From a virus (taxonomy: Duplodnaviria; Heunggongvirae; Uroviricota; Caudoviricetes), in IMG/VR virus record IMGVR_UViG_3300008108_000037, positions 4,002 through 68,001 of that record: a stretch of 64,000 nt of DNA; one strand, written 5' to 3'. The notes beneath the pieces were generated by a model. The model was not told where the DNA came from. It was given only the letters and a program-made list of their open reading frames with translations, and searched no databases. Below, one piece after another: positions 3,797 to 58,187 of the stretch (the stretch's first letter is position 1; each line of letters begins with the position of its first letter). The position numbers and the translations under genes were made by a program.

Positions 3797-4003
3797 ATGA
3801 CACACCAGTTTAACTTCTTTGAATCCCTAGATGGAAGGGAACTATTCCATTGGTTAGGTACACCATGTTTTATTTCAGATTACTACCAGAAAGAAAACGA
3901 TAATCTAGTTCAGATTACATCTTATGATGGTAGAGTATATGATGATGTCCCAGAGAGGGATTTGGAAAGTATGTCTCCTGAAGACATGGTAGGATTAGTT
4001 TAG
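3797..4003 (+). CDS. early hypothetical protein
   Basis: ORF between promoter and terminator. Confidence 0.75.
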   Translation: MTHQFNFFESLDGRELFHWLGTPCFISDYYQKENDNLVQITSYDGRVYDDVPERDLESMSPEDMVGLV

Positions 4004-26093: not shown

Positions 26094-28574
26094 ATGAAAA
26101 AATATCTCATATTATTTTTTATACTGCTTCCTTTTTTATCTTTTTCTCAAATTAAGTTATCAGGAAAGACCTATTCAAAATCCGAAAAATTATATTTCGT
26201 TCATATAGTAATTAAGGACGCATCACAGAAAGTGATTTCAACGACATCAGACCAAGATGGGAATTATAACATCTCGCTCTCTCAAGGAATATATGATATC
26301 TCAGCAACATATGTTGGATATAAAGATTTTAAAAAGCAAATAGATCTTAATACAGATTCTAATATGGATATCGTGATGGAAGAAAGCATCACAGGATTAA
26401 GCGAGGTTGTTGTCAGATCGGTTCCACAGAAAACAACAGAGATTTCTGTTATTAGAACTCTTAGAAATAGTAGCGTTGTTTCTGATGGAATTGCAATAGA
26501 TTTTATTAAAAAAACCCCAGACAGAAATGTTGGAGATGCACTCAAAAGAGTAAGCGGGGTAACAATACAAAATGATAGATTTGTTTTGGTTAGGGGGTTG
26601 GCAGACAGATACAATTCAGCTTTATTAAATAAAACTCCTTTACCATCAACCGAACCTGATAGGAGAGCATTTTCTTTTGATATTATTCCTACATCTCTTA
26701 TCGATAATATTATTGTTTCCAAATCTGCAGCAGCGAATCTTCCCGGAGATTGGTCTGGTGGACTAGTACAAATCACAACTAAAGAGATCTCTGATAACTT
26801 TCTCAACATCTCATTTGGTGGAAGTGCAGGATTAGTGTCCTCGTTTAAAAATTTTAATGCCGTTGATCCTGTCAATTTTCCATCGTCTTTTCCTTCAACA
26901 TATCGGTACAGAATAAGTGGAAATGGTGATAAAAGAGCATTCACGAAATTGATATCAAATCCATTAATGGAATCATTTACTTCAATCCCCAATTTAAATG
27001 GAGGGATGAGTGCTGGATTTAAATTGGATAAAATTAATGTTCTTCTAAGTTCTACAGTTCGTAACACATATTCTCTTAATTATATAGAAAGGACAGACTA
27101 CCAATCTTCAACTGAATTAGCTTACGATTACAGGGACACTATGTACTCTAAAAGATTTTCTGCAAATGGTCTCTTGAATCTTACCTATTTGGGGAAAAAC
27201 AGATACAGCTGGAAAACCCTATTTAATTATCAAAGCGATGATAGTTATCTTTCAAGAATTGGTCAAAACCTTGATAATGTTCAGGATGTTAGAAGCAATT
27301 CATCCAATCATATTAATAACATTGTAGTCAATTCTCAATTTGACGGAAAAATAAAAACCATAGATTTTAATCTTGGGTATAATTTTATCTTCAGAGAACA
27401 GCCAGATTACAGGGTAAACCCGATTACAAAATCTCTAGGTATAAATGAACCATATGCAACTGCTTGGAGAGACACTTACAGATTTTGGAGTGTTATGGAT
27501 GAGAATTCTTTCAATGGAAATTTAAATAAGGACTTTGGAAAAATCAGGGTTGGCGGAGGGTATCTCAAAAAAATAAGAGGATTCAATGCAAGGGTTTTTA
27601 GGTATCTTTCCACTGATATGCTAGACGAGATCACAAATAATACTGACAGATATAATGCAGAATTTGATCTTGGTAGTTTATATAGCATGTATGAGAATGA
27701 TTTTGGTAAATGGAAATTAAACACTGGATTAAGAGGGGAGTATAACACTTTTGATGTATTAACTGCAGATTTTAGTGGACAAAAGGTAAATGTAAATAGA
27801 GAGTATTTGGATATTTTGCCCTCTCTAAATCTTTCTTATAATCTTGAAAAAACAAAATATAGATTCTCGTTAAGTAAAACCCTTTCTAGACCGGAGTTTA
27901 GAGAGGTTGCTAATTTTGCTTATTATGATTTTATCAGAAATGCCCAACTTTTGGGAAATCCCAAATTAGAAAAATCTGACATTTATAATTTGGATATTAA
28001 ATATGAATTCTATCCAAAAACTGGAGAAAACTTTTTTGTATCATTTTTCGGAAAAAATTTTATAAGACCAATAGAACAGATAGTAGCTGATGGATCAGTA
28101 CCTTCTAATCTATTACTTACTTATACAAATCCAGAGAATGCTATACTCTATGGAATGGAGCTAGAGTTTAGAAAAAAAATAAACGAATGGTTTGATTTTT
28201 ACACAAATGCTTCAATTATGAATTCCGAGGTAGAAATAAATGGCAGAAAGAGACAATTGCAGGGACAATCTAATTATGTTTTAAACGGAGGAATAAATTT
28301 GAACAGAAAAAATAACACACTAAATTTAACTTACAATAGAGTAGGAGACAGAATTTCCGCTGTTGGATTTCAAGGATATCCAGATATCTTTGAAAACAGC
28401 AGAGATGTTCTAGATGTTACATTTCTACATAAAATAAAATCTGGAGAGATCAAAATATCAGTTAGTGATGTGTTCTCCCAACCCTCTGTATACTATCAAA
28501 AGATTTCAAACAGAAATCTTATAAAAACAAATAATGAAAGTATAGTTTCGATATCAATGAATATAAATCTATAA
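26094..28574 (+). CDS. TonB-dependent receptor (Bacteroidota type)
   Basis: Signal peptide, carboxypeptidase-regulatory-like N-domain, plug (DALKRVSGVT...VRGLADRYN), barrel, ends in aromatic/aliphatic strand. Confidence 0.92.
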   Translation: MKKYLILFFILLPFLSFSQIKLSGKTYSKSEKLYFVHIVIKDASQKVISTTSDQDGNYNISLSQGIYDISATYVGYKDFKKQIDLNTDSNMDIVMEESITGLSEVVVRSVPQKTTEISVIRTLRNSSVVSDGIAIDFIKKTPDRNVGDALKRVSGVTIQNDRFVLVRGLADRYNSALLNKTPLPSTEPDRRAFSFDIIPTSLIDNIIVSKSAAANLPGDWSGGLVQITTKEISDNFLNISFGGSAGLVSSFKNFNAVDPVNFPSSFPSTYRYRISGNGDKRAFTKLISNPLMESFTSIPNLNGGMSAGFKLDKINVLLSSTVRNTYSLNYIERTDYQSSTELAYDYRDTMYSKRFSANGLLNLTYLGKNRYSWKTLFNYQSDDSYLSRIGQNLDNVQDVRSNSSNHINNIVVNSQFDGKIKTIDFNLGYNFIFREQPDYRVNPITKSLGINEPYATAWRDTYRFWSVMDENSFNGNLNKDFGKIRVGGGYLKKIRGFNARVFRYLSTDMLDEITNNTDRYNAEFDLGSLYSMYENDFGKWKLNTGLRGEYNTFDVLTADFSGQKVNVNREYLDILPSLNLSYNLEKTKYRFSLSKTLSRPEFREVANFAYYDFIRNAQLLGNPKLEKSDIYNLDIKYEFYPKTGENFFVSFFGKNFIRPIEQIVADGSVPSNLLLTYTNPENAILYGMELEFRKKINEWFDFYTNASIMNSEVEINGRKRQLQGQSNYVLNGGINLNRKNNTLNLTYNRVGDRISAVGFQGYPDIFENSRDVLDVTFLHKIKSGEIKISVSDVFSQPSVYYQKISNRNLIKTNNESIVSISMNINL

Positions 28575-31948: not shown

Positions 31949-32143
31949 ATGTTAATTATAGATTGTAGCAAATATAATTCGATAGATCAGGCTTTAAAAG
32001 TGCTGAAAAACAAGGTGTCTAAAACAAATCTTGTTAAGCAACTGAGGGACAGACAAACTTATACAAAGCCTTCCGTGGTTAGGAGAAAAGAAGTTCTTGA
32101 TGCTATTTATAAGGAAAGCAAGATGAACTCTTTCGATAAATAA
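31949..32143 (+). CDS. rpsU: 30S ribosomal protein bS21 (Bacteroidota type)
   Basis: MLII...IDQALK..K.K..KT.....LRDRQTYTKPSVVRR pattern. Confidence 0.88.
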   Translation: MLIIDCSKYNSIDQALKVLKNKVSKTNLVKQLRDRQTYTKPSVVRRKEVLDAIYKESKMNSFDK

Positions 32144-35581: not shown

Positions 35582-36265
35582 ATGCTACAAGAAAAATTTT
35601 ATACGCTGGGAGGCAATCTAATGTCTTTTGAAAATGTAGATTTTGACCAGACCCAATCAGATGTTGAATATAAATATGGTTGGGAAGCATGTATGTACTG
35701 GTGTGCTTTTAAGAACGAAGAACTTTCATTACATCCAGATTGCTCTGTGAAAGCTGGGGATGTATTTGTAGATCTTGGTGCCAACATAGGAATGTCATCT
35801 AGGTATGCGGAAAGAATCGGAGCCAAAGAAATCCATTGTTTCGAACCCGATCCGAGAGTTTTCGGATGTCTTGAAAAAAATAAAGGTGATAATTGGAAAA
35901 TCTACAACAAAGCAATTTCAGAGATTAGGGGAAAATTCGAAATAGGTTTATGGCCAGAAATAAAAGAATTTGTGGAAGTTGAATCAGTTAGTCTAAAAGA
36001 TGTTTTTTCGATATGTGGATTGGAGAAGATTGATTTTCTTAAGGTTGATGTTGAGGGATGCGAAAGATCCATGTTCAATAGAGTAACTGATGAAGAATTA
36101 AGAAAGATAGATCGGATTTTTGTCGAATGGCATAAAATCGATGGAATAACGGAAAATGCAAACGAGAAATTCAGAGATGCCTTTATGAATAGGTTTAATC
36201 AAGCAGGATATAATGCTTTTGTTTATCTCGGATACCAGGATTTAATTTATTTCTGGAGGATTTAG
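35582..36265 (+). CDS. FkbM-family methyltransferase
   Basis: VFVDLGANIG, CFEPD, IDFLKVDVEGCE. Confidence 0.9.
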   Translation: MLQEKFYTLGGNLMSFENVDFDQTQSDVEYKYGWEACMYWCAFKNEELSLHPDCSVKAGDVFVDLGANIGMSSRYAERIGAKEIHCFEPDPRVFGCLEKNKGDNWKIYNKAISEIRGKFEIGLWPEIKEFVEVESVSLKDVFSICGLEKIDFLKVDVEGCERSMFNRVTDEELRKIDRIFVEWHKIDGITENANEKFRDAFMNRFNQAGYNAFVYLGYQDLIYFWRI

Positions 36266-36315
36266 AACCATCAAAAATGTGAGATTTTCTGAATATATAA
36301 AAGAAAAACTCATAT

Positions 36316-36447
36316 ATGGCAAAGGGTAAAGGTTCTTCTGAAAAAAGAAACAAAGTAACGTTCGGAAAGAGAAAGGGCGGTAAGGCTCAAAAATCTTTTA
36401 ACAAAAGTGATCGCAAAGAAAGAAACTATAGGGGTCAAGGAAGATAA
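36316..36447 (+). CDS. small highly basic protein ending YRGQGR (43 aa)
   Basis: Read manually: MAKGKGSSEKRNKVTFGKRKGGKAQKSFNKSDRKERNYRGQGR; GAATATATAA box upstream. Confidence 0.75.
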   Translation: MAKGKGSSEKRNKVTFGKRKGGKAQKSFNKSDRKERNYRGQGR

Positions 36448-36456
36448 TTAAAATAT

Positions 36457-36843
36457 ATGGAAAAAATATTGTTTATAGTTAGAGGACTACCGGGTTCTGG
36501 TAAATCAACTTTTGCCTCTACACTTAGCGATGTTTATTTCGAAGCCGATCAATTTTTTATGCAAGAAGGATCTTACAAATTTGATCCTTCTAAATTAAGG
36601 GATGCACATGCATGGTGTCTTGCTCAGGTTGAATCTATGATGCAAAAATCTGAACCAAGAATCGCGGTATCTAATACTTTTACCCAAGAATGGGAGATGA
36701 ATTCATATTTCGAAGCTGCAAAAAAATATGGATATCAAGTTTTTTCAATTATAGTAGAAAATCGTCACGGTGGAAAAAATGCTCATGGAGTTCCAGACGA
36801 TAAAATTCAAATCATGAAAGATCGTTTTCAGATTTCACTATAA
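36457..36843 (+). CDS. AAA_33 / N4BP2-like P-loop kinase
   Basis: IVRGLPGSGKST; EAD.FF; VSNTFTQ.WE; HGVP. Confidence 0.88.
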   Translation: MEKILFIVRGLPGSGKSTFASTLSDVYFEADQFFMQEGSYKFDPSKLRDAHAWCLAQVESMMQKSEPRIAVSNTFTQEWEMNSYFEAAKKYGYQVFSIIVENRHGGKNAHGVPDDKIQIMKDRFQISL

Positions 36844-36893
36844 AAAATATTTAGCTGCATTAGATTTCTAGCACGATTGAGGATATATAAATC

Positions 36894-37024
36894 AGAAAAA
36901 ATCCTCATTCCGTGCGAAAGAATACACGACTTTCCACGTATACTTTTTGAGAGAGATCTCCGAAGCCACACGACCTTCGGGGCGCATTCTCCGTAAGCGA
37001 ATTACAGATTCGAGGGTTTTTTCT
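36894..37024 (+). ncRNA. structured RNA element, copy 1 (unassigned family)
   Basis: Closed by AGAAAAAATCCT/AGGGTTTTTTCT; shares 28-, 17- and 9-nt blocks with 44062-44173. Confidence 0.75.
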
Positions 37025-37042
37025 AGAATAAAACCAAAGACC

Positions 37043-37483
37043 ATGGGATTTCTAGAAAAGATTTTTAACCCAACCTCACAAACGCAGGTTCCAGACAAGC
37101 AGAACCGTTTCAACGCAATTCTACAGAGAATGATGGCCACGAGATGGTACATCACAGCATTAACACTTTTCACCTTTGTGATTATTGCTGGTGGTATTTT
37201 AGTGTCTATTGCTTCAGGTACAGAGGTCAATCAGGAGTGGAAAGAAATTCTCCTTCTAATGCTCGGCGCATTTATCGGATCTTACAACAGGGTTATTGAT
37301 TATTGGTTCAATAACGATCAGAGAGATCAAGTACTTATTCAGAAAGTTGACGAGGAAGATGATGATCCAGGAACAGAAAAGAAAACCTTTGCATTCCAGG
37401 AAGAGATAAAAAATAACGATCCTCTATCTTCTTCTGCTTCTCAATCAAAAAATGAATCATCTTATGAAGAAGAATCTATTTAA
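37043..37483 (+). CDS. two-TM membrane protein
   Basis: Start MGFLEK at 37043 downstream of the RNA element; EWKEILLLMLGAFIG. Confidence 0.8.
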   Translation: MGFLEKIFNPTSQTQVPDKQNRFNAILQRMMATRWYITALTLFTFVIIAGGILVSIASGTEVNQEWKEILLLMLGAFIGSYNRVIDYWFNNDQRDQVLIQKVDEEDDDPGTEKKTFAFQEEIKNNDPLSSSASQSKNESSYEEESI

Positions 37484-37970
37484 AATCCTGATTTCGGTTT
37501 TTTTACTGATGGTTTGCATTCCTGTATTTTCACAGGAAAAGAAGATTACTGTAGGTGATATAAAAAATAAAATATCGATAGGCAATCTCACAGGGTCTAG
37601 ACAATTGACCTTCGGATTTAAAAATATACTACTGGAATTTTTACAGGAAAAAGACTATCCAGTAGTTGAAGATGATGAGGCTTATGATATAAAAATAAGT
37701 CTAGATCTACTTTTCTTCGATGTTGAAACTACCAAATCTAACCTGTCTGTTTTTCATAGAGATAATGCAGAAACAGTATTAAGGGTTAAAGCTTATGCAT
37801 ATGATTCATCTGGCAAGAAAATTAAAGAGGTAGTTATCACAGAAAAATCATCAGAGATCTCAGTTTCAACCCTCGTAATAGACGAAGGTGGCGGTATAAA
37901 TCAACAATCTGTCTCTAATGTTATTAAAAAGGTTTGTGATTCCGCTATAAAACAATTATTAACAAAATGA
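37464..37970 (+). CDS. secreted CsgG/TolB-N-like alpha/beta protein
   Basis: Signal peptide; architecture parallels 45140-45859. Confidence 0.55.
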   Translation: MKKNLFKILISVFLLMVCIPVFSQEKKITVGDIKNKISIGNLTGSRQLTFGFKNILLEFLQEKDYPVVEDDEAYDIKISLDLLFFDVETTKSNLSVFHRDNAETVLRVKAYAYDSSGKKIKEVVITEKSSEISVSTLVIDEGGGINQQSVSNVIKKVCDSAIKQLLTK

Positions 37971-39616
37971 AAAAGCTAATTTTATTTTTTGGGATATTTT
38001 TAATATCTCTCACGACGTTTGGTCAATTAAGTGTTACGCAAACAATTACCCCTACTACAGGACTGAAGGTTGGTGACACATTAACTGTAAAATATACAGT
38101 AACAAGGGGAACTACAACCCCTCGTTATTTTTGGTTGAGATACTCATTTAACAATAAAGCTTTGGCTATGGTACCAAATAGTACTGTCTTTACACAGGGA
38201 TCATCAACACAAACGTTCTTTACTCTTTGGAATAATTATGCATTTACTCCATCCCAAACTGCGGCAGCAACTAGCTTGTATGCACAGTATCAAGCTACTC
38301 CTTGGGCTTACACTGCAAACAATGATTGGAATGTTGGGCAATTAACAGTTCAAAGAACTGATGCATCGATCAATGGCGACATTGCAACTCAAAAATATGT
38401 ATTAAAGGATCAAAACACGTATAACAATATACATAAACTGGATTTAGCATACGCCATTAATGATACGTCAGTAAACATTTCTCCAATCACAAAAAGCTCT
38501 ACTGATCTATCATTAACAAACGTAACTGGTAATACTTCCCAATTCAAGGTTAAAGTGTTATTTCCTCAGGGATATACGATCACAGATCATAATGTTCAAT
38601 TAATGAAATTAAAAAATGATGGAACGGGAGCAATTGATTGGTCTGTTCCGCCAATTGCCCAATTACCATTAGATGCTACAGGCGAAGCACTATTTACAAC
38701 TCAGGTTAAAGTTGGGGATTCTGTTGGGGTGTTTGTATCTCCCGCTTCTCAGAAAGCTTGGATGAATAATGTCATTACTGTATCTGATGCGTACAAAGCA
38801 TTCCTAGGACATTCTCAAACAGACATTAGTGGAAATCCAACCTATTTTACCTATCCTAACTTAGAAAAACTTGTTGGTAATGTATCAAAAAATGATGCAA
38901 TTTTTAATGAAACAGATTCCTATTATCTATTTGCATACGTGATGGGTCAAGACGTTTCAGCGAATGCTTTTATTCCAACACAAACCGCAACCTCCTGGAG
39001 ATGGAATAGTGGTTTATTAAACCAAAGCTGGTTGGATGGTAATATTAAGAACAAGGTAACTATTGATACCCCAATTAAAGAAGTGTATGCTGTATTTGCA
39101 TGGGGTGGAGATTTAGATTGGTCACATTCATCTTCGACTGCAGAAATTGTAAGCAGAATTAATGCAGGTCAATATACAAATTCAGTAAACTCGATTAATG
39201 CTAAAACGACGATGTCAACTCAATCCATGGCTTACAGAACAGAAGCATTGGAAACAGCTAAATTAAGTGTATCGTCATCCTTAGAAGCTGGCAAAGTTGT
39301 TTTAAAAGCAACATTAACTAAAGAAGAATTAGCAGGACTACAAGTTATTATGCAGTACGATAACACAAAACTAACTTTAGATAATGTAATATTTGATGCA
39401 GGAAGCACTATTACCAATTTCTCTACACACGACAATGGTAGATTAACTTTCGGTTCTATCGATCAGCTAAAGACTGCTAGAATTAAAACCGGAACACCAT
39501 ACAAATTGGTGTTTACTCCAAAAGTAAATCTACAAAATACCGCAGGATTATTCTATTTCGTGTTAGCAGATGCAGTAGATGCAAATGGTAACAAGGTCGA
39601 CCTGACTATAGAATAA
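37967..39616 (+). CDS. secreted cohesin-like/dockerin-like protein
   Basis: Signal peptide; LKVGDTLTV...F N-domain; TVSDAY..GNV..ND..FNETD; C-terminal AGLQVIMQYD cohesin-like. Confidence 0.65.
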   Translation: MKKLILFFGIFLISLTTFGQLSVTQTITPTTGLKVGDTLTVKYTVTRGTTTPRYFWLRYSFNNKALAMVPNSTVFTQGSSTQTFFTLWNNYAFTPSQTAAATSLYAQYQATPWAYTANNDWNVGQLTVQRTDASINGDIATQKYVLKDQNTYNNIHKLDLAYAINDTSVNISPITKSSTDLSLTNVTGNTSQFKVKVLFPQGYTITDHNVQLMKLKNDGTGAIDWSVPPIAQLPLDATGEALFTTQVKVGDSVGVFVSPASQKAWMNNVITVSDAYKAFLGHSQTDISGNPTYFTYPNLEKLVGNVSKNDAIFNETDSYYLFAYVMGQDVSANAFIPTQTATSWRWNSGLLNQSWLDGNIKNKVTIDTPIKEVYAVFAWGGDLDWSHSSSTAEIVSRINAGQYTNSVNSINAKTTMSTQSMAYRTEALETAKLSVSSSLEAGKVVLKATLTKEELAGLQVIMQYDNTKLTLDNVIFDAGSTITNFSTHDNGRLTFGSIDQLKTARIKTGTPYKLVFTPKVNLQNTAGLFYFVLADAVDANGNKVDLTIE

Positions 39617-39619
39617 TTT

Positions 39620-41926
39620 ATGAAAAAACTCGTATTCATATTTTTAATATTGTTGAATTCAGTCTTGGTTCTAGGGCAGCAAGTGAACTCCCCAGACCCA
39701 AAAACCTTTATTCAAGGCACAGTTTCTCAAGATGCTAGTGGATTCTCTCTTAGTGGATTTAATTCAACTGTAACCCTATTATGCGCTATCGGGTTACCAC
39801 AAGCACCAACAGGAACAACTTTTAGTTTAACTACAGTTTCGGGTCTTACCCCTGCAAGCGGTTATACTATGAACGGTAATAAAACTCGTTTGGCATTTAC
39901 TGGAACAATGGCTAATATTAATGCTGCCTTAGCAACATTAAAAATAAACACAACAGCAACTGCAGGTGCAATTAACATTTCAGTATCTGCAACAGTAAAC
40001 CCTACTGGTTATTTTTACAATCCAACAAACGGACACTTTTATAGACCTATATCAACCGGAGCAACTTATACAAATGCAAGAACATTATCATCTCAACAAA
40101 CATTCAAAGGTCAACAAGGATATTTGGTAACGATAACATCAGCAGATGAAGATGCTTTTATATTTGCTAATGTTCCACAAGCTAGTATTTGGTTTGCACT
40201 AACGGATGAAGCGGTTGAAGGTCAATGGAGAATTGATGCAGGACCGGAAGCAGGAACTTTAATAAAAACTGCAAACGGACAACTTAATGGAAACGTAGTA
40301 GGACAATATAATAACTGGGCCGGTGGTGAACCAAACAATTCTGGTAATGAAGATTATGCTGTAACTAAATGGGGTGGTGGAAATCAATGGAATGATTTAC
40401 CTAATAATTTTAGCTGTGCTTATGTAGTTGAATTTGGAACTTGGACTAATCCTGATGACCAAACTTTTACCGAATTCTATTCCAATAGTGTAACACATTC
40501 AAATGGTGAAACCTTAAGGTTACAATTTACCTTCGATTTTGGTAACAATATAGACGAGACCAAATTTAAAACCAAAATGTTTACATATACTGATTATGTG
40601 TCTGGACCTTACAATGAAGCGGTTACTGGAACTACCTATACATCTTTAAATGGATTAGGAAAAACAGATAAAACAAATGATATTGATCTAGTAAAAATAA
40701 ATTCCGGACAAAAGGCAACTATATCAACAGGACAGGCTGAATTTTCTTATGTTAACATATCAAACAACACTACAACATTATACATTGATCTGTCCAGATT
40801 TGGTGGAGTAGATCCGTCAACAATAAGTAATGTCAGTATTTTAGATGCATATAACGGTCCAGTAACATATCAGCAAACTTCAACATATTGGGCACATTAT
40901 ATAGTACCCTCAGCATTAACAAAAATCACTAACGGGACGTCTTCATTTAATTCAAGTATAAGAAATGCTGGAAATAATAACTGGGCATTTATGTCCAATA
41001 TATCATTTTCACAAAATCAAATTTTTAAAAATCATGCGATCTTGTTTCAATCTTATAATTCAAGCGAACTTCAGACTTTACTTTCGCAGATTGTAACAAT
41101 TTCAGATGTTTATTTAGCATTTAAAGAATTTTCAGACAGGGGTATATTTGGAAATTCAAATGGACAGTATTTTCAATCGGGTATTCAATTTCAAAATGCT
41201 GATGTTAATCATGATAATGTTTTTGACGAGACTGATTGCTTTAAGTTGCTTAAGTATTTGCAGGGAACAGAAAATCTTTGGGAAAGTGCAGCTCTTCCAT
41301 ATGTAATGAAAATAGTTCCAAAATCCACCTATGATGATATTAATAAGAATAACTGGAACACATTCGGGGCTTATGAATTTCTGAGATCCAAATATCCTAT
41401 CACTTTAAATGATGGTGTGTTAAATTCCCATGTATTAAATGTTACATGGAAAGGTGACGTAAATCTTTCGCACTCTCCTGCACAATCCGCGAGCGGATCT
41501 ATAGCAAACCAATCTCTTTCTTTTTCTTCTGTTGCAATGCAGAATGTCGTTAATAGCGAGTCACCCACAGCTTATATTGTTTCACAAATTTCTGGAGATG
41601 TCTTGGATGTAATTATAAAATTCAATTCAAAATCCAATCCTATAGTCGGTACACAATTTCAAGTTAATTACGATAACACTAGAATTAAATATGTTAGTAC
41701 AGATTTTAAAATAAAGGGGTCCCCATCAAATTTTGATGCTAACAGGGGATCTTTTATAAATCTTGGATCCTTAGTTACCAGCGGCGAACTTCTAGACCCG
41801 CTTGCAGAATACAGATTAACTTTTAAACTAAAAACAAACCTTTCAAATTCTCTAGGATTGATTTCTATAGCATCTAACGAAGCGGTAAATCAAACTGGGC
41901 AATCAATAAAAATAAGAATAGAATGA
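39620..41926 (+). CDS. secreted C-type lectin + dockerin + cohesin-like protein
   Basis: NGHFY...GYLVTITS..WFALTD..EGQW..WAGGEPNN..EDY..WND; ADVNHDNVFDETD; GTQFQVNYD. Confidence 0.8.
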   Translation: MKKLVFIFLILLNSVLVLGQQVNSPDPKTFIQGTVSQDASGFSLSGFNSTVTLLCAIGLPQAPTGTTFSLTTVSGLTPASGYTMNGNKTRLAFTGTMANINAALATLKINTTATAGAINISVSATVNPTGYFYNPTNGHFYRPISTGATYTNARTLSSQQTFKGQQGYLVTITSADEDAFIFANVPQASIWFALTDEAVEGQWRIDAGPEAGTLIKTANGQLNGNVVGQYNNWAGGEPNNSGNEDYAVTKWGGGNQWNDLPNNFSCAYVVEFGTWTNPDDQTFTEFYSNSVTHSNGETLRLQFTFDFGNNIDETKFKTKMFTYTDYVSGPYNEAVTGTTYTSLNGLGKTDKTNDIDLVKINSGQKATISTGQAEFSYVNISNNTTTLYIDLSRFGGVDPSTISNVSILDAYNGPVTYQQTSTYWAHYIVPSALTKITNGTSSFNSSIRNAGNNNWAFMSNISFSQNQIFKNHAILFQSYNSSELQTLLSQIVTISDVYLAFKEFSDRGIFGNSNGQYFQSGIQFQNADVNHDNVFDETDCFKLLKYLQGTENLWESAALPYVMKIVPKSTYDDINKNNWNTFGAYEFLRSKYPITLNDGVLNSHVLNVTWKGDVNLSHSPAQSASGSIANQSLSFSSVAMQNVVNSESPTAYIVSQISGDVLDVIIKFNSKSNPIVGTQFQVNYDNTRIKYVSTDFKIKGSPSNFDANRGSFINLGSLVTSGELLDPLAEYRLTFKLKTNLSNSLGLISIASNEAVNQTGQSIKIRIE

Positions 41927-42273
41927 CAAGGGTTTTACTAACTATATTAATTGTTTCATCTCTTTGGGGGTGTCGAAAAATGGAAATAGAGCCAATTCCT
42001 CCATCAAGGAATGAGGACATTTTTTCTACCAAACAAGCATCTGTCTCCGACGATGCCCCCATAAATTTCAATTTAAAAATCGAAGGAATTTACACGTTAA
42101 CTCTCTTTGATCCTGTGAGCCAGCAGGTAGTAACAAGAGAAAGAATTTTTGGAATTACAGGAAATAACACATTCAAATTATACACGAAGGCGTTACCAAC
42201 GAATCAAGTTTATTTATTGTTACAAGATGAAAACAATAATGAAATCGGAAAAACGCTTCTAGTGATAAAATAA
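41923..42273 (+). CDS. lipoprotein with T9SS-CTD-like Ig fold
   Basis: Lipobox WGC; YTLTLFD...VV......G.N...LYTKALP...Y.L. Confidence 0.55.
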   Translation: MTRVLLTILIVSSLWGCRKMEIEPIPPSRNEDIFSTKQASVSDDAPINFNLKIEGIYTLTLFDPVSQQVVTRERIFGITGNNTFKLYTKALPTNQVYLLLQDENNNEIGKTLLVIK

Positions 42274-42284
42274 AAAATAAAAAA

Positions 42285-42653
42285 ATGAAAAAAATAATTT
42301 TAGCAGCATTTATTTCATCCATTGTTATGGGATGTAACAAGATGGACATTGAAATGCCTTCACCTCCAGCCCCGGATCGATTAGCTATTGAATCTTCTGT
42401 TGGTATCAAATTGGAATCACCTTTTGTTACCTCAGAAGTATCAATGAACGTTAAGAGTGATATAACTCAAACTGTAAGTATTAGGATCTATGATATCTCA
42501 AATAGAGTTGTTTCCAAAGAGACTGTAAACGTAAAGGCTGGAGATAATATTTTAAAAGTTTATACCTCAGCTTTACCATCTTCAGCATATAGGATTGGCT
42601 TATATGATTCAAAAGGAAACGAGTTAGGTATTACCGATTTTAACAAGCTTTAA
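42285..42653 (+). CDS. lipoprotein with T9SS-CTD-like Ig fold
   Basis: Lipobox MGC; IRIYDISNRVV...VKAGDN.LKVYTSALPSSAYRI. Confidence 0.65.
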   Translation: MKKIILAAFISSIVMGCNKMDIEMPSPPAPDRLAIESSVGIKLESPFVTSEVSMNVKSDITQTVSIRIYDISNRVVSKETVNVKAGDNILKVYTSALPSSAYRIGLYDSKGNELGITDFNKL

Positions 42654-42688
42654 ATCTAGAAGGAGGGAGCAATTTATGACACGACAAA

Positions 42689-44044
42689 TTGATGAAAAAA
42701 TTAATAATATTTTTTTTATTGACAATAGCCCTCAAGGTAAATGGTCAAATCTTTACTCAGACTTATGTTGATAAATGTACAGGGGAAATAAAAACAGTAA
42801 CTACAACACCCATGGGAAATGGTATGGTTGTAGTTGCTTTTTATAATCAGATAAAAACATTTTCGAGCACTGACTTGACCAACGGAACGGTTCAGACGTG
42901 GCTTAATCAGGTTTATTCTGATTATAATTCGAGGCCCTGTCCTGTTATCAGTGTGGTCCAGCAAACGGTAACCCAAGCAGTTGCCCAACAAGCAGCTGCA
43001 GCCGCAGCTTCTGCAGCATCCTCTGCAGCAAGTGCATCAGCTAGTGCTGCAGCAAGTTCTTCTGCCAGTACTGCAGCAAGTTCTTCCGCTAGTAGTTCTG
43101 CAGCAACTTCATCGGCTAGCTCTCCACCACAGAGCAGCTCGTCGCAAAGCGGGGGTAGTTCCTCTTCAAATTCGTCGCAAAGCGGAGGTAGCTCATCATC
43201 TTCAGAATCAAAAAATGAAACTAAATCTGAGGGAACAAAATCGGAAAGTAAATCAGAGGAGAAGAAAGAAGAAAGTAAATCTGAATCTAACGAAGAGAAG
43301 AAGGAGGAAAAGAAAGAAGAATCCAAGGAGGAGAAAAAGGAGGAGGACAAGAAAGAAGATAAAAAAGACGATAAAAAGAAGAAGCAACAAAATACGAATC
43401 CAACTTTAATTGCATCAGATCTTGCGGTTACCCAGAGTGCAGATGGCAGATACACCGCGATGATTTCAACCGGCATAAGTAAGTCTTCTATGACGGGAAC
43501 GAGCTCGTGGGGTTTAACCTCTTTGATATGGGCAACTTTTGATCAGTTTGCTCTAAACGGGGGCTATACCAAAATGAATTTTGATAAGGGTAAACTAAAT
43601 AATATAAAATCATATTCGATGACCGCTGCTTATTTGCAGGGAAATTTTATGATCATGCAGGGACACACATACATTAGGCCACATCCTAAGATTGGAACAT
43701 ATGGATACAATGTGGGTGTTATCAGTTTACTGATAAAGAATGGAAACAGGTATGACTATTCTCTTTCGAGCTCTTTAGTTGGATTTTGGACCAAGCCATA
43801 TCAGATGAACAAGAGACTTTCTATCTCACCGCAGGTTTTTATAACATCTTCTCCCATAGCTTGGAACCCGTCAACAAACCAGACTGTAGTTAGCAAGGAT
43901 TTTGGTTATATGGGAGGTGCTTCGTATGACTATAAATTAACCAAGAGATTTGGAATGAATTTTAGTTACAGATTTGCTGGATCGACAAAAGAAGGATCCA
44001 AGATACTTCACAATTTCATGATAGGATCAAGAATTTTGTTATAG
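42689..44044 (+). CDS. secreted protein with Ser/Ala and Glu/Lys linkers and C-terminal beta-barrel-like domain
   Basis: Signal peptide; low-complexity middle; alternating amphipathic strands at C-terminus. Confidence 0.75.
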   Translation: MMKKLIIFFLLTIALKVNGQIFTQTYVDKCTGEIKTVTTTPMGNGMVVVAFYNQIKTFSSTDLTNGTVQTWLNQVYSDYNSRPCPVISVVQQTVTQAVAQQAAAAAASAASSAASASASAAASSSASTAASSSASSSAATSSASSPPQSSSSQSGGSSSSNSSQSGGSSSSSESKNETKSEGTKSESKSEEKKEESKSESNEEKKEEKKEESKEEKKEEDKKEDKKDDKKKKQQNTNPTLIASDLAVTQSADGRYTAMISTGISKSSMTGTSSWGLTSLIWATFDQFALNGGYTKMNFDKGKLNNIKSYSMTAAYLQGNFMIMQGHTYIRPHPKIGTYGYNVGVISLLIKNGNRYDYSLSSSLVGFWTKPYQMNKRLSISPQVFITSSPIAWNPSTNQTVVSKDFGYMGGASYDYKLTKRFGMNFSYRFAGSTKEGSKILHNFMIGSRILL

Positions 44045-44061
44045 AAAAAAGATATATAGAA

Positions 44062-44173
44062 GTGAAAAAATCCTCATTCCGTGCGAAAGAACACAAAAGC
44101 CTTTCCACGTATACTTTAATGGGAGAGTTAGAAAACTCTCAAAAAAGCGAATTTAAGATTCGGATTTTTTCAC
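44062..44173 (+). ncRNA. structured RNA element, copy 2 (unassigned family)
   Basis: Closed by GTGAAAAAATC/GATTTTTTCAC; compensatory changes relative to copy 1. Confidence 0.75.
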
Positions 44174-44244
44174 ATGAGAATAAAAAGAAGAACTGTATTA
44201 AATGTATATGTTTCTGATGACAAAAAAGAATATAATTTAAAATC

Positions 44245-44559
44245 ATGGCAGAAGAAATGCAAGAAACAGAAGGAACTTGGACTGGTCTGAAAAAAACAAT
44301 TGTGGGAACGTTAGCTACAGTTGTAACAGCCGGTGGTGCTTGGCTCGGAACTACTCTTTTCGGGGGAGGTAGTGACAATGCTGCTCCAGCTGCTGCTCCA
44401 GCTCCGATTATTAACATTACCAATTCTAACCAGCAAGCTCAGCAAGCTGCAGGAGGTAAAACAGTAATAATCAAAGAAAAAGCTTCCTCTGAAAAACCAG
44501 CAGAAAAGAAAGAGGAAAAGAAAAAAGACGAATGGACCAAAGAGGAGCCTAAATGGTAA
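44245..44559 (+). CDS. membrane-anchored protein
   Basis: One TM, Ala/Pro/Gln and Lys/Glu-rich tail. Confidence 0.75.
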   Translation: MAEEMQETEGTWTGLKKTIVGTLATVVTAGGAWLGTTLFGGGSDNAAPAAAPAPIINITNSNQQAQQAAGGKTVIIKEKASSEKPAEKKEEKKKDEWTKEEPKW

Positions 44560-44595
44560 ATCTCAATCCTTTTGCAGAATATAAAAACACACGAC

Positions 44596-44853
44596 ATGAA
44601 AAAATTCTTTTCACAGCTTTTTAGCGACGACAACAGTATTAACGAAAAATCCGTTGTTGGGTTCTTAGCTTTCGTAATGATGGCATTATTTGCTGTCGCC
44701 GACATTGTAACAGGTTACTTGGGTAAGGATTTAGTAATCAATGAGTTCATCTTTAACGCCTTCCTTTGGTTGGTACTTGGATCTTTTGGAATAGGATCCG
44801 TTGATAAGTACATCAATAAGAAGGGAAGTTCTAATGACGAAACTGTTGAGTAA
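44596..44853 (+). CDS. two-TM membrane protein (holin-like)
   Basis: ACACACGACATG start; INEKSVVGF...LGSFGIGSVDK. Confidence 0.75.
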   Translation: MKKFFSQLFSDDNSINEKSVVGFLAFVMMALFAVADIVTGYLGKDLVINEFIFNAFLWLVLGSFGIGSVDKYINKKGSSNDETVE

Positions 44854-44910
44854 GAGTCAAAAAAAAGAGTGTAGGTAAATCCTACACTCTTTAAAATATT
44901 ATAAAATAAA

Positions 44911-45129
44911 ATGAAAATCTTACAACAAGTAGAAAAATTTCTATTCACAACATTTGCTCTATCAGCTACAGCATTTGTTTTTTGTGCATTTTGTGTACAA
45001 CTGGCTTTTGTTTATATGCACTTTACCAAGACCGAAGAGGAGCAACTCAAAATCTCTAATGATATAACTTGGAAAATCGACGGAAGATGGGGTGATACAC
45101 CAGGTAATATTTGGTACGAAGGAAAATAA
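44911..45129 (+). CDS. small membrane protein
   Basis: One TM. Confidence 0.65.
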   Translation: MKILQQVEKFLFTTFALSATAFVFCAFCVQLAFVYMHFTKTEEEQLKISNDITWKIDGRWGDTPGNIWYEGK

Positions 45130-45139
45130 TCTCATATAC

Positions 45140-45859
45140 ATGAAAAAGATTTTATTCACCCTAATATTGGGACTGATCTCTGCTGCATCATATGCTCAGG
45201 TAGTAGGACAAACTAAGACTGAAGATTATAAGGCTTCCTTCGAAAAAAAGATTAACATAGATTCATTAATGGATTATGATGGTCCAACAATACCAATTCA
45301 GCTATTGAATCTTGGTATTAACGAGGAGGTTTATGCCATGTATCCGGAACTCAAGGATAAAAGAGTAGGTCTAGGAGTGACTAATATCGTAATTGAATTC
45401 TTCGAAGAAATGGGGAGATTCACTTTCACTGAGGATAAAACGGAAATTAAAAATAGAATGGTAAAGCAATTCCAAGCAAGCCAATCGGGATTTACTGAAA
45501 ACAAATTAGACGGAAGAGGAAAGATAAAACTTGCTAGATACTTTGTTTACATTGAAGTTTATGATTTTTCAGTTTCTGAAGATGAAACCGTTAATCTAAA
45601 AAATGGAGTTAAAAACACTATGGTTACTAGACTTGGTATGCAAGTTAAATTTGTTGATGCAGAGACTGGAGAATTTTTTACAGGATCTGGATTGGGAGAA
45701 GCTAAAACCGTAAGGGAATTAACATTGATGAATGATGAAAATTTCTCAGAGGTTAAGTTTAACCAATCGACCATAGGAACTTCTACAAAGAAAGCTTTGG
45801 AAATTGCTTCTAGTAGAATTTTAGTAAGAATGATAAAGAAGGGTATTTTCCAAAAATAA
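45140..45859 (+). CDS. CsgG/HfaB-family protein
   Basis: Signal peptide; GLGVTNIV...RF.F.E.K; VYDF..; RLG.QVKFVDAETGE...GSG.GE. Confidence 0.8.
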   Translation: MKKILFTLILGLISAASYAQVVGQTKTEDYKASFEKKINIDSLMDYDGPTIPIQLLNLGINEEVYAMYPELKDKRVGLGVTNIVIEFFEEMGRFTFTEDKTEIKNRMVKQFQASQSGFTENKLDGRGKIKLARYFVYIEVYDFSVSEDETVNLKNGVKNTMVTRLGMQVKFVDAETGEFFTGSGLGEAKTVRELTLMNDENFSEVKFNQSTIGTSTKKALEIASSRILVRMIKKGIFQK

Positions 45860-45918
45860 TCCTAAATTATTTTTCTTAAGACTATTCTTTAGTCACGACC
45901 TAAAGTAAAAGTATTAAG

Positions 45919-46563
45919 ATGAAAAATAAAATCTATGAGGGAATAATATTTACCCTCATATTACTAATCACACTGTCCGGAATTTCTGGATGTAAAAATT
46001 CTAAAGAACAGAAAATGCCTACAGTTGAGGCATCAATTCCTTCCAAGGATACAATTCCAGTCCATGATACAGTGTATGTTGAAACTGAGGTTGAGGTGCA
46101 AGTTCCTGTAGAAATAATCAAAGAAAGAATAGAATATAGAGAGGTAGAAGCTAAGGTCGACACTGCTGCTATACTTGCTATATTTTTACAGAAAAAAAGC
46201 GTTATTGACACGCTTAAGCTAGAATATGGATACATTTATTTAACCGATACCCTATCAGGAAATTCCATAGTTTCTAGAAAATTCATCCCTAAAATTAAAG
46301 TTCCTTCCAAGGAAAAAATAGTTTACGAAGAAAAAGAGCCAGAACCATCTTTTTATATTGGAATCAACTCTGGATTAGACAAACCAAATTATGTTTACAA
46401 CTTGGGAACTTCTCTATTTTATCAAACACCAAGATCTGGGATGTATCAAGTGGGTATTGGGGTTTGGAATCAAACCATAGATGGGATTAATGGTAAATTC
46501 GTTCCCTATATTACAGGGGGTTACTACTGGAGAATAAATTTAAAAGGTAGAAGGGAAAAATAA
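45919..46563 (+). CDS. lipoprotein (possible spanin/envelope protein)
   Basis: Hydrophobic N-terminus with SGC lipobox; DTIPVHDTVYV repeats; beta-rich C-terminus. Confidence 0.65.
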   Translation: MKNKIYEGIIFTLILLITLSGISGCKNSKEQKMPTVEASIPSKDTIPVHDTVYVETEVEVQVPVEIIKERIEYREVEAKVDTAAILAIFLQKKSVIDTLKLEYGYIYLTDTLSGNSIVSRKFIPKIKVPSKEKIVYEEKEPEPSFYIGINSGLDKPNYVYNLGTSLFYQTPRSGMYQVGIGVWNQTIDGINGKFVPYITGGYYWRINLKGRREK

Positions 46564-57677: not shown

Positions 57678-57773
57678 AAATTCGAGGAAATTCTTCTAAA
57701 CATGCGAAATTTTATTACATTTGCGATATATAACAATCAAAGTTCTTTAAAATATTGGTAATTTGATTTCGAA

Positions 57774-57840
57774 GCGGCAGATTTGGATACTTCAAACTAT
57801 ACAAATAAGCAACGGATTAATTAGGCTTCATGCCCAATCT
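57774..57840 (+). ncRNA. Y-RNA-like hairpin 1 upstream of TROVE
   Basis: GCGGCAGATTTGG-ATACTTCAAACTA...CCAATCT; shares TACTTCAA(A)CTA with hairpin 2. Confidence 0.5.
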
Positions 57841-58034
57841 AAAACGAGCAAATCCCCTCTCGGCTGGGTAATGCTCCTCTGGACGTTAAACGACTGGAGT
57901 AACTAACCGGGTATTTCCTGTAGAAACGGGGGTGTCAGAGACCATAAGGCTGAAGATTCGCTTCCTTAAGGAGCAACCCCAAACTGGGAATTCTCGAAAC
58001 AAAAAACCAAATTTATTTAAGATTATAAACTATC

Positions 58035-58084
58035 CGACGCGGGACAGGGAGTTACTTCAACTACAAACCGAAACAACACTCCCT
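58035..58084 (+). ncRNA. Y-RNA-like hairpin 2 upstream of TROVE
   Basis: GCGGGAC-AGGGAGT-TACTTCAACTA...ACTCCCT; 7-bp perfect stem. Confidence 0.55.
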
Positions 58085-58133
58085 TTCAATATTCTCGGTA
58101 AGTTTCTAAAAGTCTTTATTATTAGACATGTGG

Positions 58134-58163
58134 AAGCTTATCGGAACCCGATAGGCTTTTTTT
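58134..58163 (+). terminator. intrinsic terminator 24 nt upstream of the TROVE start
   Basis: AAGCTTATCGG-AAC-CCGATAGGCTT-TTTTT. Confidence 0.85.
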
Positions 58164-58187
58164 ATTGGGAAAATTAAAAACAAACAT

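Follow-up and report, generated by a model that had tools for sequence, protein, structure and literature searches.

The Vibrio vulnificus add adenine riboswitch is a translational ON switch, in which the 3′ strand of helix P1 alternates with a helix of the expression platform. A hairpin shapes the initiation region in fourU-type RNA thermometers and in the leaders of T4 genes 25 and 38, and T4-type phages carry PeSL (promoter-early stem-loop) cassettes, which are short, numerous, and early, and flank gene cassettes. Paired cis-acting antiterminator RNAs, namely putL/putR of phage HK022 and nutL/nutR of lambda, are located just downstream of the promoters heading long operons (PMC8632103). Here, we describe a two-copy element, predicted to form a structured leader RNA, that resembles each of these systems in part. 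The analyzed sequence, hereafter the window, is a stretch of 64,000 nucleotides (nt) from a virus of the Caudoviricetes (positions 4,002 to 68,001 of IMG/VR record IMGVR_UViG_3300008108_000037) and belongs to a 132-kb virus record with an estimated completeness of about 40%. The two copies, designated A and B, bracket a block of genes for secreted and outer-membrane-like proteins (Table 1).

Like the add-type riboswitches, the element has a 5′ domain closed by a stem (P1), the 3′ strand of which has an exclusive alternative partner over the initiation region, and the energies of the two states are nearly equal. Unlike them, it has no known ligand, its peripheral helices are far more variable than those of known aptamers, and it would sequester an A-rich start region or early codons, free of any Shine-Dalgarno sequence, by means of a U-run; it also differs from known riboswitches in having no Rfam riboswitch match. 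As with putL/putR and nutL/nutR, there are two related cis elements per genome, each behind a presumed operon-head promoter, but the put RNA is a double hairpin of about 65 nt without a closing stem, whereas the phage element is a stem-closed junction of 110–140 nt linked to a start codon. PeSL cassettes likewise combine promoter and structure in repeated modules beside gene cassettes, and in the clade of the window a gene has been relocated beside one copy of the element; however, there are exactly two copies, both of late type, with long-range pairing and covariation pointing to a role as RNA. In common with the fourU thermometers and the T4 gene 25/38 leaders, a U-run pairs with purine-rich initiation sequence and folding would decide the access to the start codon, but here a third strand (S1, the 5′ strand of P1) competes for the U-run within a large conserved domain.

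The first-pass annotation of the window, made from the letters alone, had described blocks shared by two copies, each behind a GATATATA box, and all of them were found where it had placed them. The 5′ block is identical over 28 nt between the copies, and its 27-nt core occurs twice (at 36896 and 44065), with zero occurrences expected from shuffled sequences. A common 17-mer lies at 36930 and 44101, and AAGCGAATT is present in both copies. Searches of the 132-kb record by BLAST, sequence pattern, nhmmer, and covariance model found no third copy. In the predicted fold, each copy forms a long closing stem around three hairpins, with stability z scores of −4.6 (copy A) and −5.3 (copy B) against dinucleotide shuffles, none of 200 being as stable. 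The annotated helices P2 (GUG-C-GAAAG/CUUUC-CAC) and P3 (CCGAAG/CUUCGG versus GAGAGUU/AACUCUC) were recovered in this fold. A 5-bp P4 was also recovered, but it was shifted by one base from the proposed CGAAU/AUUCG to GAAUU/GAUUC, because the G in question is used by P1. The U-tract, which had been taken for a tail behind P4, is actually the 3′ strand of the closing stem, and the supposed conservation of GTATAC and P4 holds only within the clade of the window and not across the family. A 51-codon frame opening in copy B is broken in relatives by run-length changes and insertions, and an upstream reading frame located 3′ of S2 at B is not kept in the closest relatives.

The RNA had not been recognized as a known type, and database searches agreed. 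Rfam 15 at its gathering thresholds gave no match in the whole window, and at E ≤ 10 the two copies returned only chance-level small nucleolar RNA, microRNA, and small RNA (sRNA) matches, all far below threshold. Megablast matched the locus to no deposited phage genome. The element therefore belongs to no Rfam 15 family and no published description of it was found, while its kind, a structured cis-regulatory leader, is already known.

Related contigs were recovered by a protein search with the outer-membrane-like gene, and in the four closest a homologous element directly follows this gene; the upstream flanks of the relatives contain a second homologous element before the gene for a 172-amino-acid (aa) protein. 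Further members came from a search of viral and metagenome collections with a pattern comprising the box and S1. A covariance model, R1, was built from the window clade, which consists of four contigs, and the relatives were then realigned to it. R1 gave 31 full-length matches, 30 of them distinct, from related giant-phage contigs, with element lengths of 108–141 nt. Five records, one of them 245 kb long and rated 86% complete, each contained exactly two elements. Both positions are fixed: site A is flanked by a small AAA-domain gene and the 172-aa gene, whereas site B, 6 nt behind the stop of the outer-membrane-like gene, precedes the 104-aa membrane-protein gene. On the reverse strand, R1 gave only weak matches (E ≥ 0.017), as expected from the symmetry of the A-run and U-run.

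The covariation that had been claimed from the two copies was seen once these relatives were collected. P1, in which an A-run and UCCUC pair with GAGGG and a U-run, and P2 are conserved and covarying. In the R1-based alignment of 30 sequences, standard pairs occupy 88.9% of cells; shuffled alignments gave 84.1% and none of 500 reached the observed value, while a control with slid partners paired only 37–68% of cells. Ten pairs change on both sides, which was equaled by one of 500 shuffles, and the covariation score was 0.185, compared with 0.120 for shuffled and at most 0.061 for slid partners. Independently of this alignment, the lengths of the A-run in S1 and of the U-run in S2, the 3′ strand of P1, change together (5/5 in two lineages, 6/6 in most, and 7/7 in one), and in one A copy a G inside the A-run still pairs with U. 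The P2 helix is kept with differing sequences (GUG..CAC, UUCG..CGAA, and GGUA6..U7ACC). Position 8 of P1 is a U:G pair in 16 of the 30 sequences and would be C:A on the other strand, which supports the plus strand as the RNA strand. RNAalifold returned no structure from plain MAFFT alignments, since the variable middle shifted the 3′ strand out of alignment; this problem was overcome by the window-clade model and realignment.

The junction sequence CAU(U/A)C is invariant or nearly so. P3 and P4 vary between sub-clades, and some B copies have no P3 and carry a hairpin inside the P2 loop. In A copies, the apical loop of P3 keeps (A)CACGA on covarying stems (CCGAAG/CUUCGG, UUGGG/CCCAA, AGGG/CCCU, and CGGG/CCCG), and CACGA occurs 21 times in 3.8 kb of elements, about 10-fold more than the 2.1 occurrences expected from the genome rate. 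We regard it as highly probable that the element is a real, conserved, and strand-specific structured RNA, and the earlier proposal that such an RNA heads both gene groups is supported.

This paralogous two-copy RNA family is confined to a narrow clade of giant phages. More distant relatives carrying the same gene block (43–55% protein identity) have no such element, so that the family could not be extended beyond the clade; their leaders are ordinary and short, or the outer-membrane-like gene ends in a plain terminator hairpin. In two of them (L023:6660-6720 and L025:6617-6680), a plain G+C-rich terminator hairpin stands in place of copy B, with a convergent gene behind it. An exact 19-mer had no match in viral contigs. 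A gapped junction pattern, CATTCCGTG...CACGTATAC, gave 10 matches in viral contigs, all coding or unrelated and hence attributed to chance, and fewer than half of 77 distinct matches to the box-plus-S1 pattern had the family signature, the rest being unrelated.

The evidence for a regulatory role centers on the strand S2 at site A. In many A copies folded with their downstream sequence, the minimum-energy fold pairs S2 not with S1 but with a third strand, S3, which either has the A of the AUG as its last base or occupies codons 3–7 and leaves the AUG in the loop. Across the four A sub-clades, the bases that follow the U-run show covariation with S3 (CUAGAA/UUCUAG, CCUA/UAGG, CCAAU/AUUGG, and CCA/UGG). 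S2 and S3 are separated by 3 to 26 nt. Against 149 gene-start decoys from the same genome, the cognate S2:S3 duplex ranked 0–2 in 12 of 13 A sequences and 12 in the remaining one. The duplex of the window copy A, at −15.9 kcal/mol, ranked 1 of 149 among the genome's own gene starts, and the P1 and S2:S3 states had energies of −45.8 and −45.7 kcal/mol, respectively. Across A copies, the state with P1 forced and the state with S1 blocked differed by −4.8 to +4.4 kcal/mol. At site B, S2:S3 ranked 7–14 of 149 in the window type and one other type, and in most B copies P1 is clearly more stable than the S2:S3 state. Mutually exclusive helices overlapping the folded domain were consequently found at A in four of four sub-clades and at B in only some.

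In the window clade, the gene behind A is a 146-aa two-pass membrane-protein gene (37043-37483) that lies behind B in the other clades (counterparts at L017:7149-7784, L020:7345-7914, and L048:12836-13402). Twelve bases complementary to S2 lie inside codons 3–7 of this relocated gene. Its homologues in other clades have a different N-terminus, the relocated gene showing a rebuilt one (MGFLEKI versus M..NQQ..GFKDLL). The complementarity could be either an adaptation or a recombination scar.

With roughly even confidence, we interpret the element as a 5′ leader that acts in cis and serves as a translational gate at site A. Driven by the late-type GATATATA box, its transcript would begin at or beside the first G, and S1 (G, the A-run, and UCCUC at the 5′ end) pairs with the distal S2 (GAGGG or GGA, the U-run, and C). 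This pairing is predicted to close a multi-branched domain of 110–140 nt with a conserved P2 and variable P3 and P4. At A, S2 has a second possible partner in S3, which overlaps the next gene's start codon or lies immediately behind it. With P1 formed, the A-rich start region would be free and translation allowed, and with S2:S3 formed, it would be buried; as judged from the modeled folds, the closing stem at A probably competes with the start-hiding helix and thereby switches the translation of the next gene. Since the energies of the two states are nearly equal, some factor would decide between them, possibly a protein or small molecule that stabilizes or disrupts the domain, with the conserved CACGA loop and the CAU(U/A)C junction as candidate contact sites. 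At B, the domain follows the end of the gene block and may mainly cap transcript ends.

In the Bacteroidota, the host phylum, Shine-Dalgarno pairing is not used and leader structure tunes initiation; the genes of the window are also devoid of Shine-Dalgarno sequences. According to a study on Flavobacterium, initiation is tuned by leader structure together with upstream A residues, which makes a translational gate at A plausible (PMC6847099). The cis-regulatory role that had been suggested for the element fits the evidence and gains from the competing helix over the downstream start codon. The accompanying suggestion that both operons are co-regulated agrees with the start-codon helix at site A, while at site B the picture is patchy. 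We consider it unlikely, though worth stating, that the family represents a new class of ligand- or protein-responsive sensor RNA in giant bS21-encoding Bacteroidota phages, one that times the translation of the envelope and membrane locus late in infection without a Shine-Dalgarno element, its 5′ A-run mimicking the A-rich start region and competing for the U-run anti-start strand.

Several observations weigh against a translational switch or soften the evidence for it. The alignment used (A7) was fitted to model R1, which inflates the pairing counts; most P1 columns never vary, and the narrow clade offers few independent events. The large differences in P3 and P4 between sub-clades are unusual for a ligand-binding aptamer. 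The window-clade palindrome TTCTAGAA could be a rearrangement scar rather than an adaptation. At site B, the S2:S3 pairing ranked 85–132 of 149 in several sub-clades, and it did not outperform decoys in the L040, L032, L034, L051, L102, and L087 types. Finally, the RNA-library contigs discussed below are 2–3× deep, could derive from DNA, and cannot show RNA ends or strand.

A constitutive leader without any switch is possible but rather unlikely. The domain would pair the 5′-terminal nucleotides and shield late transcripts against end-dependent decay, and copy B would additionally cap the upstream block at its 3′ end. Alternatively, the domain would modify the polymerase in the manner of put for read-through of the long operons. 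Such a role suits the two copies per genome, each directly behind a box heading a long gene group, the pairing of the first base of the RNA in P1, the closeness of B to the bracketed block, 6 nt behind its stop codon, and the greater stability of P1 in most B copies; it leaves the covarying, near-isoenergetic S2:S3 helix at A unexplained. For the put-like version, the short HK022 RNA acts in cis behind early promoters (PMC8632103), but the stem-closed junction described here, with two to three internal hairpins, departs from its double hairpin. There is also nothing obvious to read through, since terminator-like sites in the gene block are not enriched (4 found versus 5.2 expected from shuffles).

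The element could also be a stand-alone gene for a trans-acting sRNA, in which the box would direct an RNA of 110–130 nt released at the U-run, for example as a decoy or sponge for a protein recognizing CACGA loops or the CAUUCC junction; we judge this improbable. The fixed spacing between box and element, the U-run at the 3′ end of the closing stem, and the enrichment of CACGA are in its favor. So is GAATATAA, an 8-mer that is invariant in every B-type sequence, always 8–12 nt 5′ of the AUG, so that the next gene may have its own start signal; it also precedes three other genes of the genome. By contrast, the second box is missing from A-type copies, the S2 of which pairs with the start region, and the 132-kb record contains no complementary target for the junction sequence. 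Moreover, the U-run stem is not a local G+C-rich hairpin but a 4–5-bp closure of a roughly 100-nt multiloop, and a terminator scan of 36000–46000 found nothing at either element, although the phage has canonical terminators (44864-44892). The latter site, just after a 93-aa gene, is a strong 12-bp hairpin flanked by A- and T-runs that resembles a canonical two-way terminator, and from such sequence features the phage looks like a user of ordinary terminators.

Transcript data bear on the same question. One freshwater metatranscriptome contained four short contigs with at least 99% identity to the window (0–1 mismatch, one with a single-base gap), covering 36961-37114, 44222-44366, 44468-44631, and 44813-44964, and no other contig of at least 99% identity was found there for 35.5–46.5 kb. 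The 154-nt contig at 36961-37114, identical to the window, extends from copy A past its U-run and on into coding sequence, which hints weakly at read-through. No contig covered the 5′ half of either element, which is not evidence of absence, and the RNA runs X2–X4 yielded only short, diverged, or no pieces of the locus. An attenuator with a U-tract terminator, as initially proposed, is not supported, given the U-run inside P1, the scan without a canonical terminator, and the contig crossing the U-run, and the same three points weaken the alternative proposal of a released sRNA.

It is very improbable that the copies matter only as a DNA-level repeat, in which a duplicated promoter cassette, kept alike by gene conversion, would serve as a recombination substrate for gene shuffling in the manner of the PeSL cassettes, with incidental folds. 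In favor of this reading, the copies flank a gene block as direct repeats, their 5′ halves are identical in the window clade, where a gene has moved from behind B to behind A, and both have the same junction variant within each genome. Against it, S1 and S2 remain complementary over an intervening 100–130 nt of variable sequence, their runs agree in length, compensatory changes occur in P2 and P3, the G:U pairs are strand-specific, and the variable S2–S3 spacing is ill-suited to a dimeric DNA operator. The junction variant shared by A and B is CAUAC in two genomes and CAUUC in the others (pairs compared: L045/L043, L056/L042, L050/L040, and L055/L044), which suggests either that the copies undergo gene conversion or that they co-evolve with a partner they share.

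Table 1. Coordinates of the element copies, pairing strands, boxes, and neighboring genes in the window
Feature	Position	Strand	Description
Copy A, structured RNA	36895..37023	+	Predicted fold; covariance model R1 151.5 bits, E 4e-34; pair counts
Copy A helices	P1 36895-36906 with 37012-37023; P2 36911-36938; P3 36949-36991; P4 36999-37011		
Copy B, structured RNA	44064..44171	+	Predicted fold; covariance model R1 99.5 bits, E 2e-21
Copy B helices	P1 44064-44073 with 44162-44171; P2 44080-44109; P3 44123-44140; P4 44149-44161		
S2	37012..37028	+	3′ strand of P1 (GAGGG + U6 + C) plus CUAGAA; shared by two mutually exclusive helices
S3	37050..37061	+	Codons 3–7 of the 146-aa gene (UUCUAGAAAAGA); pairs with S2, start codon in hairpin loop
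Box GATATATAA before copy A	36882..36890	+	Presumed promoter, presumed start G36895; role inferred
Late-type box before copy B	44051..44059	+	6 nt after stop codon of 451-aa gene
Second box GAATATAA	44228..44235	+	9 nt before start of 104-aa gene
First gene after A	37043..37483	+	146-aa membrane protein, start codon 37043-37045
Six-gene block between copies	37452..44044	+	Secreted, lipoprotein, and outer-membrane-like proteins; gene order kept in relatives
First gene after B	44245..44559	+	104-aa single-pass membrane protein

The GATATATA box occurs 14 times on the plus strand and twice on the minus strand of the window, mostly 4–29 nt 5′ of a start codon, and can be likened to the T4 late box as a putative late-type promoter. 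The 16 GATATATA(A) sites are spread over 6077-61457 with a strong plus-strand bias, and in several cases the start codon follows after just 4–7 nt; should the box be a promoter, this would imply leaderless or near-leaderless late mRNAs. In every family member, the box is separated from the first base of the element by a fixed 4–5 nt, and the 5′ end of the RNA is therefore likely to be the first base of the closing stem. Only the boxes at A and B stand before a long structured leader (160 and 190 nt) that continues into a gene. About 450 nt of non-coding sequence lie behind the box at 57725; this region (57735-58170), located before a Ro60-like gene, is unrelated to the structured element, which it does not resemble by eye, and it gave no match to Rfam at the gathering thresholds.

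The GAATATAA box was found at 28559, 35566, 44228, and 44577, in each case 8–11 nt before a start codon, and could be a variant or second promoter or an initiation signal. ACACGAC, which contains the motif enriched in the element loops, lies directly before the start of the 93-aa membrane-protein gene (44585-44598), and CACGA is also present just upstream of the box at A (36872-36876).

The bracketed block encodes the 172-aa signal-peptide protein, secreted proteins of 549 and 768 aa with lectin and cohesin hints, two small lipoproteins, and the 451-aa outer-membrane-like protein. Pfam and PHROG searches revealed no function for the first genes after A and B, the 146-aa protein having no match in either database, and the neighboring membrane and secreted proteins point to no metabolite. 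Ribosomal protein bS21 is encoded at 31949-32143 (Pfam Ribosomal_S21, E 4e-13). With bS21 and an estimated genome near 330 kb, the phage fits the group of bS21-encoding giant phages that Chen et al. (2022) described for freshwater Bacteroidetes, in a report that mentions no such RNA motif (PMC9723584).

The family offers a compact and testable case, with three strands (S1, S2, and S3) represented by natural compensatory variants at two fixed sites per genome, and its conserved loop motif could lead to a binding partner. To our knowledge, very little is known about the regulation of gene expression in giant Bacteroidota phages, or about the control of translation by RNA switches in a phylum that ignores Shine-Dalgarno sequences. 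Even if the element is only a stabilizing leader, it constitutes a new Rfam-type family useful for the annotation of such phages. If the switch is true, it would show how a start region without a Shine-Dalgarno sequence can be gated, and would point to timed expression of the block of secreted and outer-membrane proteins of the phage.

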